A DNA stretch of 62,998 bases, counting the filler, from Reclinomonas americana ATCC 50394 (taxonomy: Eukaryota), in the NCBI GenBank assembly GCA_048213135.1. It is 4 parts of 2 records of this genome, joined end to end, with 100 filler letters (N's around TTAATTAATTAA, not from the genome) between each part and the next. Parts side by side here need not be neighbours in the genome. Positions count along the whole stretch, not along the records: positions 50,577 to 62,998 come from PS015247.1; 3 more parts are not named here. One strand, 5' to 3'. Positions 55,840 through 62,206 of the stretch are shown piece by piece (position 1 is the stretch's first letter; each line of letters starts with the position of its first letter). The notes under the pieces are model-generated. The model was not told the DNA's origin and did no database searches. It saw only the letters and a list, made by a program, of their open reading frames with translations. Position numbers and translations under genes: made by a program.

Positions 55840-57195
55840 ATGGATTTCGAGAACGCCCAAGTTGGAGGCAGTGGATCAGCTCCTCCTCTTCCTCTTCCTC
55901 CTCCTGCTCCAGAGGATGACCGTCAGATTGTTCTCGAGCAAACAGCGTGTCGTGGTGGTGAACTGGGGTGTGCATGGCGTGGGATTGATGGAGAGAGGGA
56001 GGAGCACGAGCGAGTGTGTGATGTGTTGCGCGTTGAGCGACCACTGCGAGAGGTGCGTGTTGAATGATGGGCATTGGATGATTGCTTGTCAATACATGCA
56101 GCTGATATGAGCACAGCTGCATGGTCGGGTGCGGGAGCTGTCGCAGATGGTGGCGCAGGAGAGAGAGGCGCGACAAGCGGTTGAAGAGCGTCTGACTCGC
56201 GAGCAGCAAGCCGCGAATGAGCGGCTTGCCATGGAACAACAAGCACGACAAGGTGTTGAGGAGCGACTTGCCATGTGCGCTGAGCAACTTGGATCCGAGC
56301 GGCGCATGCGTGAAGCTCTCGAGAGAGGTGTTGCTGAGGTCTGTTGTGTGAATGTCGGTGGCTCATCCGAGTGCTCCTCTCCTAATCTTGTCTGCAGCTG
56401 CTCGCCCGTCTCGAGCCACTGGAGATACGTGAACGGGAGATCCAGGAACGAGAGGCAGCTGAGCGGGAGCGTCAAGCCAGACAACAGGAGGAGCGGGAGC
56501 GGCAGGCCAGGGAGCAGGAGGAGCGAGAGCGGGTGGCGAGGGAACGAGAGGAGCGCGAGCGAACGCAGATACGGAAGAGCGATCTGCTGAGTGCGGCGGA
56601 TGCGCGAGTGGTGTTGCAGTGGGTGCAGCAAGCGCGAGGTGGCGGTGGGAGTGTGCCCAAGTTGACGTTGCTGTTCAAGGGCAGTCGAGATGGTTTTGCG
56701 GTAGCCACATTCCATCAGCAATGTGACAACCGTGGGTGAGTGATTGTGGAGAGGAGAGTCGGCTTGTTGTGATCGGTGACTGATGAGTGTGAGTGCCTTT
56801 CGTGTAGACCGACGCTGACGGTGATCAAGTCGTCGACGGGAAGAGTGTGTGGCGGATACACGCCTGTCTCGTGGCTGTCTGCGGGAAGCATCTGGGCCGC
56901 CGATCCATCCGGCACCAGCTTCTTGTTCTCGGCGTCGCGGACTGGTGCAAGTACGCGGCGCTTTGCGCTGAAGACCGAGTCGAAACATCAGGCCGTCTGC
57001 TACAACATTGAATACGGACCTTTCTTCGGCGGTTCCGATATCGCCTTGGTTGACAATTGCAACAGCAACAGCAGCAGCAGCAGTTACTTTCCTGCCCACT
57101 ATCAGAGCACTGATGGTGGAGCATGTGACAGAACGACGTTGATGGGATCGCAGTTCTTCCAAGTAGCAGACTACGAAGTCTTCCTCGTTGAGTGA
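55840..57195 (+). CDS. TRAF-like TLDc protein copy 1, lacking RING and zinc fingers 1-4
   Basis: Exons 55840-56052, 56117-56338, 56398-56735 and 56808-57195. One finger (CRGGELGC..EHERVC), coiled coil, ER-rich helix, then TLDc (LLFKGSRDGF..FHQQCDNRGPTLTVIKS..GGYTPVSW..SFLFS..GPFFG..YEVF). Confidence 0.88.
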
Positions 57196-57298
57196 AACAC
57201 CATGTTGCCTCAAAGTTGTCGATTCGGAGAAGGCTGCTACTTCGTAAAGGCAAAAGACTGTGTGGATGACGGGACATCTTGACAGCCATTGTGAAGTC

Positions 57299-57676
57299 AT
57301 GGGTTTCGAAGACGCGCACGTGGGAGGTGGTGGTGGAGAAGGCAGTGGAGCTCCTCTTCCTCCTGCTGCTGCAGAGGATGACAGTCAGGTTGTTCTCGAG
57401 CAGCAAGTGCTTCGACTCACTGGCCAGGGTGACCGTGCGGAACAATATGTGTTTTGTGTGGTGCGCGCTGTGCATCGTCGCCGTCCTTCCGAAGTGGGAG
57501 AGAAAGAGAAGGAAGCACCGCGTTTGTGGATGGAGAATGTGGCGGAGGAGTCACGAGTGTTGGCGGACGAGTATCTGTGTCCAGTGTGCTTGGTGAGTGA
57601 GTGTGTTGAAGAGAGAGAGAGANNNNNNNNNNNNNNNNNNNNCGAGAGAGAGAGAGAGAGAGAGAGCTGTGCGCTG

Positions 57677-57713
<37 letters not shown>

Positions 57714-60014: not shown

Positions 60015-60051
<37 letters not shown>

Positions 60052-60149
60052 CCACTCGTGATACTCACTCTCTGTGCTGCAGGATCTGTGTGCTCCGGAT
60101 TTTGTGTTGTGTGCCAGCGGGCTACATTATGTGTGTCGGTGAGTGAGTG

Positions 60150-60196
<47 letters not shown>

Positions 60197-62206
60197 GAGA
60201 CAAGCTGTGCGCTGACTCTCTCTCTCTCTCTGTTGATTGCATGCGTCAGTGAGCATGTGACGGAGGCTGGTGCGGATCTGTGTGGCGATGGAGTCACGTC
60301 GCTGGCCACTCTGCGTGAACTCCCACCGCGTGTCCTGCTGACATACCGCAATGTGAAGGTTGGGTGTGCTTGTCGTTGTTTGTGTACGCAAGTCGCCAGT
60401 GATGTTGACATGTGGGAGCACCACAGATCACATGCCCGCTATGCCACGCACCCATGGTTTGTGTTTGTCATGGAGAGTTGGTTGTCTTGTTTTCTCTCTC
60501 CTCACGGTGGATGGGCAGACGGTGGGCGACTATTACCGCACACATGGCCTCACGCAGTGTCCGTATGCATGCGAGAGATGTGGACAGCAGATGACACTGG
60601 ATCGCACGGCGGAGCACGAGTGGAGTGGATGCTTGCGCGAGTGTCCGCTCGGATGTGGAGCGAGGCTTGCGCTGAGTGAGATGGTGGAGCACAGCTGGAG
60701 TGGGTGCATGCGAGCGTGTCCACGTGGATGTCAGCAGCAGTCTTCATTGGCGGAGATGCAGCGGCATCTTGGTGAGTGTGCTTTGACGGAGAGAAGTGTG
60801 TCATGACACTGATTGTTCTCTCGTGACAGACACGGAGTGCCGACTGCAGCATACAGTATGTCGTGGTGGTGAACTGGGGTGTGGATGGCGTGGTGTCATT
60901 GGTGAGAGGGAGGAGCATGAGCGAGTGTGTGATGTGTTGCGAGTTGAGCGACCACTGCGAGAGGTGGGTTTTGCAGATGCGCAGTGGATGTTGCTGGTCA
61001 TTCAAGCAGCTTATGTTGCTTATGTTTGTGAGCGCAGCTACATCACCGAGTACGAGAGCTATCGCAACTGGTGTCTGACAGCAGGGAGCAGTTGGCGCAC
61101 GAGCGAGAGGCGAGACAAACCACAGACGAGCGGCTGGCCGCTGAGCAACGGGCGAGGCAAGTTGATCGTGAGCAGCTTGCCGATTGTGTGGGGATGCTTG
61201 TCGAGTGCCGGCAGCAACTGGCTACTGAACGAGAAGAGAGACGAGCTGCCGAACAGACCGAGCAGCGCTTGCGTGAAGCTCTCGAGGAAGGTGTTGCTGA
61301 GGTTTGTTTTGTGAATGCTGATGAGCTTCGACTGCATCGCCCTCTCCTCACTCTATCTACTTTCCATCTGCAGTTGCTCGCCCGTTTCGCGCCGCTGGAG
61401 ATGCGTGAACGAGCGATTCAGGAACGCGAGGCGGCTGAACGCGAGAGGCTGGCCAGAGAGCAGGAAGAACGGGAGCGGCTGGCCAGAGAGCAGGAGGAGC
61501 GAGAGCGGCAAGCCAGGGAGCGGGAGGAGCGTGAGCGCGAGGCGAGGGAACGAGAAGCGCGTGAGCGGGCGGAGAGGAAGATTAACAGCAGCGATCTGCT
61601 GAGTGCTGCGGATGCGCGAGTGGTGTTGCAGTGGGTGCAGCAGGCGCGAGGTGGTGGAAGTGTGCCCAAATTGACGTTGCTGTTCAAGGGCAGCCGAGAT
61701 GGGTTTGCAGCACGCACATTCCATCAGAATTGCGACAATCGTGGGTGAGTGAGAGAGGATTTGGGTGTAGAGCGAGCTTGTTTTGCTCGTTGACTGATGA
61801 GTGCGTGGCTGCGTGCAGACCGACGCTGACTGTGGTCAAGTCATCGACTGGACGAGTGTGTGGCGGATACACACCTGTCTCGTGGACATCCACGAGTGGG
61901 AGTTGGGGCGCCGATCCGTCCGGAAGCAGCTTCTTGTTCTCGGCATCGTGGAGTGGTTCAAGTGCGCGACGATTTGCACTGAAGGATGGCAAGAAACAGT
62001 ATGCCGTTGTGCACGGCTCTGGTCGTGGACCTACCTTTGGCAGCAACGATGTCTACTTGGTGGACAGCTGCAACAGTAGCAGCAACAGCCTCAGTAACCT
62101 TCCATACTACTATCCGAGCACTGACGGTGCAGCATGTGACAACACGACACTGATGGGATCGCAGTACTTCCAAGTGGCAGACTACGAAGTCTTCCTCGTT
62201 GAGTGA
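59705..62206 (+). CDS. TRAF-like TLDc protein copy 3 (complete)
   Basis: RING-like CPVCLDLCAPDFVLCASGLHYVCREH...LCGD, five TRAF-type fingers, an extended coiled coil, four ERERxARExE units and TLDc ending YEVFLVE-TGA. Confidence 0.9.

Follow-up and report, generated by a model that had tools for sequence, protein, structure and literature searches.

Introduction

TLDc domains are known mainly as oxidative-stress factors and as binders of the V-ATPase (for the mammalian proteins, see PMC8608904), and what the surface of the domain recognizes is still debated. In the described proteins (OXR1, NCOA7, TBC1D24/Skywalker, mEAK-7/TLDC1, and TLDC2), the domain is found together with LysM, GRAM, TBC, or EF-hand-like parts. 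Here we describe three tandem genes from the protist Reclinomonas americana ATCC 50394 (assembly GCA_048213135.1) that encode the same domain, judging by profile matches and by the fold of a relative that is 47-50% identical, but that combine it with RING-like, zinc-finger, and coiled-coil parts. They occupy the last 7 kb of the stretch of DNA that we analyzed ("the window": 62,998 nucleotides, filler included, joined from four parts of two records). Their subfamily also differs from the known TLDc proteins in having a motif of its own (C-N-x-N-x-x-S-x-S-N-L), and the best relative that we found is 52% identical.

Expansions of TLD-domain genes have been reported in Paramecium bursaria and Tetrahymena utriculariae, where they were read as oxidative-stress tolerance (PMC11834939), and a TLDC2-like gene is on a list of genes with branch-site positive selection in Symbiodinium (PMC12284398). 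These reports describe neither variable patches at the level of sites nor E3-like architectures. Our literature searches turned up nothing about hypervariable patches in TLDc domains or about TLDc acting as the recognition domain of E3 ligases.

In their layout, our genes resemble TRIM5alpha and the finTRIM genes of fish, whose B30.2/SPRY domains reportedly have variable loops. These systems have a RING (RING-like in our genes) and a coiled coil ahead of the recognition domain at the C-terminus, are arranged as tandem paralogues, and concentrate their amino-acid change in surface loops of the C-terminal domain while the body is conserved. The differences are that the head here is TLDc instead of SPRY, that Pfam shows no B-box in the exons scanned, and that the evidence for positive selection ranges from p = 0.008 to p = 0.09. 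In TRAF proteins, a RING is followed by Cys/His fingers and then by a coiled coil, as is also the order here (where the RING-like part was recognized by eye). In some relatives of our genes the TLDc domain follows BTB_2, BTB-BACK, or Sina fingers, which is where MATH or Kelch sits in known adaptors of the cullin-3 and TRAF types. MATH-BTB genes have expanded in grasses (PMC4091423). Our genes have no MATH domain, and their exons, scanned singly, do not match the zf-TRAF profile (see below). Finally, a conserved scaffold in which the 3' end of the gene has variable patches, with some codons of the form NNC, is reminiscent of diversity-generating retroelements (DGRs). Unlike in DGRs, we see no adenine-specific pattern, and no template repeat or reverse transcriptase in the window, and these are the spliced genes of a eukaryote.

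In these three genes, amino-acid change is in excess in the exon that encodes most of the TLDc domain, and this excess is real and specific to that exon. We put the probability at about one half that a partner-binding surface of the TLDc domain has diverged in specificity between the copies, probably with the help of positive selection.

Results

Three tandem genes with C-terminal TLDc domains

The three genes are copies of one gene, arranged head to tail (Table 1). All eight introns of copy 3 have GT-AG ends, and its reading frame is uninterrupted. Exons 1-4 encode a Cys/His-rich N-terminus that is RING-like in appearance (a C-x2-C ... C-x-H ... C-x2-C pattern can be discerned by eye), exons 5-6 encode putative Cys/His zinc fingers, and exons 7-8 encode a coiled coil with Glu/Arg-rich repeats. 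The TLDc domain begins late in exon 8 and takes up exon 9. In copy 2, exon 2 is concealed by a run of N's at 57622-57643, and the frame is open over the eight visible exons. The RING-like part and most fingers are absent from copy 1, which retains a coiled coil and a TLDc domain; the 30-odd N-terminal residues of its exon 1 run directly into the last zinc finger. Copy 1 could be a ligase-less decoy or a regulator of copies 2 and 3.

The three copies encode TLDc domains: their terminal exons match the TLD family of Pfam (PF07534) with E = 2.5e-11 (copy 1), 2.7e-13 (copy 2), and 5.6e-12 (copy 3). The three scores (in ascending order, 44.2, 46.4, and 50.7 bits) are well above the gathering cutoff of 24.5, and the match of copy 3 covers positions 54-169 of the 170 in the profile. 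The end of exon 8 of copy 3 aligns to positions 4-52 (18.8 bits, E = 0.0016, below the cutoff).

An AlphaFold2 model of exon 9 of copy 3 has a confidence (pLDDT) of 94.7, and its strands come in the same order as in P0016, the closest full-domain relative (184 amino acids, 47-50% identical to the three copies). The model of P0016 itself, which was built from a 75-sequence alignment headed by this protein (pLDDT 93.3), matches the solved TLDc structure 4acj with E = 5.9e-9 and TM-scores of 0.76/0.83. Across 4acj, 7obp, 8ar6, 7u8o, and 6r82, the matches have E = 6e-9 to 4e-7 and TM-scores of 0.67-0.83, and they include NCOA7, mEAK-7, Skywalker, and Oxr1. The predicted structure of P0016 is the TLDc fold, with two antiparallel sheets in a sandwich and N-terminal helices. 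A sequence search of the PDB with the single exon gave a match at the level of chance (E = 0.61), and a profile search did align mEAK-7.

Amino-acid change is concentrated in the last exon

We compared copies 2 and 3 exon by exon with Nei-Gojobori estimates of synonymous (dS) and nonsynonymous (dN) divergence and their ratio (omega). The ratio is low in exons 5 (dS = 0.34, dN = 0.031, omega = 0.09), 6 (0.42, 0.020, 0.05), 7 (0.58, 0.108, 0.18), and 8 (0.38, 0.044, 0.12), and much higher in exon 9 (0.31, 0.171, 0.55). The other two pairs of copies have omega = 0.52-0.54 in exon 9; across the copies, dN in this exon is 0.17-0.22 and dS is 0.31-0.43. In other words, amino-acid change is in four- to eight-fold excess in exon 9 while the synonymous rate is unchanged.

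A preliminary description of this locus had called the zinc-finger exons of copies 2 and 3, and the intron before the last exon, nearly identical. For the zinc-finger exons this is correct at the protein level, given the low dN in exons 5 and 6, but at the DNA level these exons are about 90% identical, and their synonymous sites have diverged (dS = 0.34 and 0.42). The last introns of copies 2 and 3 are identical at 66 of 74 aligned bases (89%). We used the last intron as a local, near-neutral benchmark: its divergence (K) is 0.117 between copies 2 and 3 and 0.20-0.21 between copy 1 and either of the others, with the caveats that short introns hold splice signals and that a gapped alignment flatters intron identity.

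The 5' part of copies 2 and 3 is much more alike. Here dS is 0.07 in exon 1, 0.07 in exon 3, and 0.15 in exon 4, and K is 0.06-0.07 in introns 3-4, as compared to dS of 0.31-0.58 downstream of exon 4. The low divergence of both synonymous sites and introns points to a recent gene-conversion tract that ends before exon 5.

Variable sites in the TLDc exon

Of the 128 residues of the terminal exon, 47 differ among the copies (34 with two states and 13 with three), and the other 81 are invariant. The preliminary description quoted residue strings for six variable patches on a "near-invariant" scaffold. All six are present (Table 1), as are the codon triplets that it listed: GCC/CGC/TAC at codon 79, TTC/AAC/TAC at 116, AGC/TAC/CTC at 91, CAC/AAC/TAC at 97, and TCC/AGC/AAC at 76. 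The scaffold is better described as conserved, because 22 of the 99 codons outside the patches vary (including 36, 42-49, 56-61, 75-76, 81-83, 104, and 108), as compared to 25 of 29 within them. Similarly, the patches had been labelled as rich in Tyr, Trp, Ser, and Asn. Asn is indeed enriched at variable sites relative to invariant sites (10.6% vs. 1.2%, p = 5e-5) and Tyr weakly so (8.5% vs. 3.7%, p = 0.06). Ser is not enriched (14.2% of residues at variable sites vs. 17.3% at invariant sites), and Trp accounts for just 3 of the 141 residues at variable sites.

In the published TLDc fold, sheet 1 is formed by beta1-5 and beta10, and sheet 2 is formed by beta6-9 and the start of beta10 (PMC8329711). 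Going by the order of secondary structures and this published fold, five of the six patches lie in or beside the segment that builds the second sheet. More broadly, 22 of the 38 codons in this segment (codons 63-100) are variable, as compared to 25 of the 90 codons elsewhere (p = 0.0023). Along the short strands, variable residues (64, 72, 79, 81, and 91) alternate with invariant ones (63, 73, 80, 90, and 92), which is the pattern of one exposed face, so the variable residues probably share an exposed face of the second sheet. Variable sites are not significantly enriched in loops or strands as such (Fisher's exact test, p = 0.07 with the model of the relative and p = 0.18 with the model of the exon).

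One of the patches can be compared to a known interface. In mEAK-7, the loop after a conserved Trp and an RDGF-type motif touch the V-ATPase: Pro316 and Gln317 contact subunit A, and Gly276 and His277 contact subunit B1, as reported in a cryo-EM study (PMC9263379). In our profile alignment, codons 26-27 of patch 1 line up with Pro316 and Gln317, and the invariant RDGF motif of exon 8 lines up with Gly276 and His277. These are four of the eight reported contacts (two in RDGF and two in patch 1); the other four fall in a stretch that HMMER did not align. Both contact elements can be aligned here, a hint from the alignment that the copies may bind the V-ATPase, as mammalian and yeast members reportedly do.

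Possible diversifying selection and its alternatives

To ask whether omega exceeds 1, we computed codon-model likelihoods with our own implementation (three sequences on a three-taxon star tree, with F3x4 frequencies, kappa, and site classes). For exon 9, the log-likelihoods were -992.39 for M0 (omega = 0.60), -979.52 for M1a, and -974.72 for M2a. M1a is strongly preferred over M0 (likelihood-ratio test (LRT), 25.7, p = 4e-7) and places 53% of sites at omega = 1. M2a in turn places 23% of sites at omega = 3.7 and is preferred over M1a (LRT = 9.6, p = 0.008). A chi-square distribution with two degrees of freedom is conservative for this comparison. Twenty sites are assigned to the fast class with posterior probability above 0.8, including 23, 28, 29, 36, 64, 67-69, 72, 76, 79, 91, 96, and 116; in patch 2, codons 64, 67, 68, and 69 have posteriors of 0.90-1.00. 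In exons 6-8, the same comparison over 226 shared codons gave no signal (LRT = 1.45, p = 0.48), and the omega > 1 signal is specific to exon 9. Within the patches, omega is 1.12, 1.50, and 1.38 for the three pairs, as compared to 0.27-0.32 in the rest of exon 9, although the patches had been picked because they vary.

We propose that the three genes are tandem germline paralogues from a protist gene family in which an N-terminus with RING-like and zinc-finger parts, followed by a long coiled coil, would carry a C-terminal TLDc head. This layout is similar to that of TRIM, TRAF, and BTB-adaptor E3 ligases, in which the target is recognized by the C-terminal domain. After duplication, the copies would have diverged through ordinary mutation, with gene conversion keeping copies 2 and 3 similar in their 5' parts and with purifying selection on the protein body. 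Of the residues in the last TLDc exon, between about one fifth and one half would change at or above the neutral rate. These fast-changing residues are predicted to sit in loops and at alternate positions of the short second-sheet strands; we suspect that this is where the TLDc head binds its partners, that the copies now differ in their specificity, and that the change was driven by selection and not just tolerated.

Several results weigh against this proposal. Because two or three bases differ in many of the variable codons, we added rates for double and triple changes to the model. With these, the log-likelihoods became -976.68 for M1a and -974.28 for M2a, and the comparison lost significance (LRT = 4.8, p = 0.09). 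In the patches, the proportion of nonsynonymous differences is not significantly above that of synonymous differences (Fisher's exact test, p = 0.28-0.47). To avoid a circular choice of sites, we also defined site classes from the entropy of each position in 72 other members of the family (cutoffs of at least 2.5, 2.8, or 3.0 bits). The variable classes defined this way have omega = 0.65-0.95, and the remaining sites have omega = 0.28-0.34. The sites that vary among the three copies tend to be those that vary across the family (mean entropy 2.68 vs. 1.77 bits, p = 5e-6), which neutral drift at tolerant surface positions also predicts. The comparison covers three sequences. Recombination among the copies can inflate site-model tests, and a 5' conversion tract exists here. 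Lastly, single-exon scans of exons 1, 5, and 6 found no Pfam RING or B-box, and exon 1 had no hit, which leaves the zinc-finger and RING assignments without Pfam confirmation on single exons. Overall, omega above 1 in exon 9 is suggestive, not robust.

An alternative is that constraint on tolerant surface and loop positions was simply relaxed, so that after duplication they drift at near the neutral rate, with no selection for diversity and with specificity unchanged. This is the main rival to our proposal and a real possibility, although we would not put our money on it. In its favor, M1a already fits with about half of the sites at omega = 1, the preference for M2a loses significance with multi-nucleotide changes, the variable positions are those that vary across the family, the classes chosen in advance stay below 1, and the beta3-beta4 and beta5-beta6 loops are reported to be the parts that differ among the solved TLDc structures (PMC8329711). 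Against this explanation, omega for the fast class is 3.4-3.7 and M2a has the higher likelihood whether or not multi-nucleotide changes are allowed; 13 sites have three different residues in three copies, often with 2-3 base changes per codon; and dN in the patches (0.49-0.78) is 2.7- to 4.2-fold above the divergence of the adjacent intron (K = 0.12-0.21). Furthermore, 25 of the 56 family-variable positions are invariant among the three copies, so tolerance alone fails to predict which sites changed. Overall, about half of exon 9 is strongly constrained and the other half evolves at near the neutral rate, and a subset of sites may be faster. The preliminary description had proposed diversifying selection on a ligand-binding surface, by analogy to the variable loops of antibodies. 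The elevated omega of exon 9, the M2a result, and the excess of patch dN over intron divergence agree with this, while the multi-nucleotide model and the entropy-based classes weigh against it; the data are compatible with such selection and weakly favor it.

Another explanation is that the patches are mosaics of older alleles, brought in by short conversion tracts from paralogues that we do not see, instead of new substitutions. Base changes are mildly clustered by branch (52 runs vs. 60.4 expected, P = 0.04); for example, the 7 base changes in codons 56-58 are all on the branch of copy 3. Allowing double hits raises the log-likelihood of M1a by 2.8 units, and conversion has been active in the array, as dS is 0.07 in exons 1-3 and 0.3-0.6 downstream. 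This clustering fits with multi-base events or small conversion tracts, and not with adenine mutagenesis. It is weak, though, and mostly reflects multiple hits within single codons (P = 0.08 within variable codons). Also, dS in the patches (0.36-0.52) barely exceeds that in the rest of exon 9 (0.30-0.41), and a tblastn search of the window with copy 3 found the three copies and no donor. We think that exchange of this kind is quite unlikely to account for the patches.

The preliminary description also raised the possibility of adenine mutagenesis by a DGR, while noting that a preference for codons ending in C could explain the NNC pattern. It was right about the latter. In exon 9, codons ending in C make up 47% of codons at variable positions and 33% at invariant positions, as compared to 15% in exons 1-8, and NNC fits 6 of the 13 three-state codons, which is what a targeted mechanism that rewrites the patches (a DGR or some other somatic process) would have in its favor. 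The pattern arises because the codons for Asn, Tyr, Ser, His, Phe, and Ile prefer C. Whichever copy is taken as the template, A is present at 26-31 of the 106 variable base columns and is no commoner there than C, G, or T. No codon position is favored (22-28, 20-25, and 25-33 differences at the first, second, and third positions), and there are about as many transitions as transversions. Divergence also extends to synonymous sites (dS = 0.31-0.43) and to introns, which disfavors hypermutation. None of the 93 open frames of at least 150 amino acids at 1-55700 matches a reverse transcriptase family (E up to 1e-5), and no fourth, non-coding copy of the exon, such as a template repeat, occurs in the window. 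We therefore reject a DGR or somatic hypermutation, which is close to refuted within the window and which we consider extremely improbable. The divergence is ordinary germline change of tandem duplicates. More generally, NNC-like codon patterns can come from amino-acid composition and codon preference, with no need for a retroelement.

Relatives and a possible role in E3 ligases

An exhaustive profile search found 2208 relatives with E up to 0.001. Among the matches listed, many carry 2-8 TLDc repeats; in P0004 (1833 amino acids), P0005 (1513 amino acids), and P0014 (635 amino acids), there are 4 to 8 tandem TLDc domains per protein. Tandem domains within one protein are another way to multiply TLDc heads. 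A word-indexed search for longer relatives gave two hits, at 39% identity.

We scanned for domains in 101 of the 150 listed relatives (those of 280-800 amino acids) and in the two relatives from the word search. All of them have TLD. Upstream of it, 12 have BTB_2, 3 have BTB and/or BACK, 2 have a B-box (one of these also has a RING), and 1 has a Sina zinc finger; in addition, 1 has a kinase domain, 2 have fn3, and 1 has pentapeptide repeats. Because TLDc is often placed where Kelch, MATH, and SPRY sit in known E3 adaptors, we read it as a recognition head. By this analogy, TLDc would be the recognition head of E3-like adaptors, and our genes may have an E3-ligase role.

The zinc-finger parts do not place the genes in a known family. 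Exon 5 does not match zf-TRAF (PF02176; E = 2.3, 9.4 bits vs. a cutoff of 27; exons were scanned singly), and a match to zf_UBZ in the same kind of scan is below the cutoff (E = 3.6e-5). We considered membership in the TRAF family and rejected it, as the zf-TRAF profile is not matched and the C-terminal domain is TLDc instead of MATH/TRAF-C. Since Pfam confirms neither zf-TRAF nor RING on single exons, we do not file the genes as TRAF or TRIM. The similarity of exon 5 to the relative with the Sina finger (P0148) is not significant (E = 0.36).

If TLDc occupies the recognition slot of E3 ligases and the copies differ on one part of it, then this part would be indicated as an interaction surface, and TLDc could serve as a general evolvable recognition module. 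This would offer another reading of the large TLDc expansions in protists. A still broader idea, which we find doubtful, is that multimeric E3 ligases of this protist lineage, and perhaps of the many relatives with BTB, B-box, RING, or Sina domains, took up TLDc as a recognition head that diversifies, a counterpart of SPRY in TRIM proteins or of MATH in TRAF and BTB adaptors. If so, tandem arrays would evolve new specificities on the second sheet and the loops, perhaps against parasites or symbionts. If the variation is mere drift on tolerant loops, this is an ordinary tandem gene family.

Gene models and other features of the window

Table 1. Coordinates of the three genes, of features within them, and of neighboring genes. 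Positions count along the window.
Feature	Positions	Strand	Remarks
Copy 1	55840-57195	+	4 exons, 386 amino acids, short paralogue
Copy 1, exons	55840-56052, 56117-56338, 56398-56735, 56808-57195	+	open frame, GT-AG introns
Copy 2	57299-59606	+	same build as copy 3; exon coordinates mapped from copy 3
Copy 3	59705-62206	+	complete gene, 9 exons, 633 amino acids
Copy 3, exons 1-5	59705-60001, 60083-60138, 60250-60358, 60427-60456, 60519-60771	+	
Copy 3, exons 6-9	60830-60963, 61038-61301, 61374-61744, 61819-62206	+	
Terminal exons	56808-57195 (copy 1), 59219-59606 (copy 2), 61819-62206 (copy 3)	+	128 codons each, gapless alignment
Stop codons	57193-57195, 59604-59606, 62204-62206	+	
Last introns	56736-56807 (copy 1), 59145-59218 (copy 2), 61745-61818 (copy 3)	+	local near-neutral benchmark
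Candidate homogenized 5' tract	57299-57942 (copy 2), 59705-60456 (copy 3)	+	exons 1-4
Patch 1	61886..61909	+	codons 23-30; beta3-beta4 loop after the family-invariant Trp22; 7 of 8 residues vary
Patch 2	62009..62026	+	codons 64-69; strand end and loop before the conserved GPxFG motif; 6 of 6 vary
Codons 72 (F/I/T), 75-76, and 78-79 (IA/IR/VY)	62033..62056	+	variable and invariant residues alternate along short second-sheet strands
Patch 5	62084..62110	+	codons 89-97; within the family motif C-N-x-N-x-x-S-x-S-N-L-x-x-x-Y; 6 of 9 vary
Patch 6	62159..62167	+	codons 114-116; directly before the last strand
Nucleoside transporter, SYF1 splicing factor, ammonium transporter, sortilin/Vps10-like, and Kelch-repeat genes	20219-24069, 37077-38345, 41755-42399, 52132-52719	-	Pfam

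The window is eukaryotic in character, with short GT-AG introns and GA/GT microsatellites. The run of N's that conceals exon 2 of copy 2 sits within a GA microsatellite, and other runs of N's (assembly gaps) are found up to 54456.

The 18 visible introns of the three copies have the donors GTGAGT, GTTGGG, GTTTGT, GTGGGT, GTGCGT, GTCTGT, and GTGTGT, and one GCGAGT; none begins with GTTGCG. The GCGAGT donor belongs to the final intron of copy 2, where the donor at 59145-59146 is GC (exon GG, then GCGAGT); copies 1 and 3 have GTGAGT at the equivalent site. The coiled coil varies in length: exon 8 of copy 3 and its equivalents contain Glu/Arg-rich units similar to ERERLAREQE, whose number varies by copy. 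Copy 3 has a 10-residue insertion in exon 8 and insertions of 7 and 11 residues in exon 7.

The upstream neighbors, as identified by Pfam, are ordinary genes: a nucleoside transporter, SYF1, a protein with an RRM, an ammonium transporter, a sortilin-like protein, and a Kelch protein. Just 3' of copy 3, at 62412-62546, there is an open frame that begins with a hydrophobic stretch that looks by eye like a signal peptide. It is followed by an intron-like stretch and then by CA/GAGT microsatellites that continue to the end of the window.

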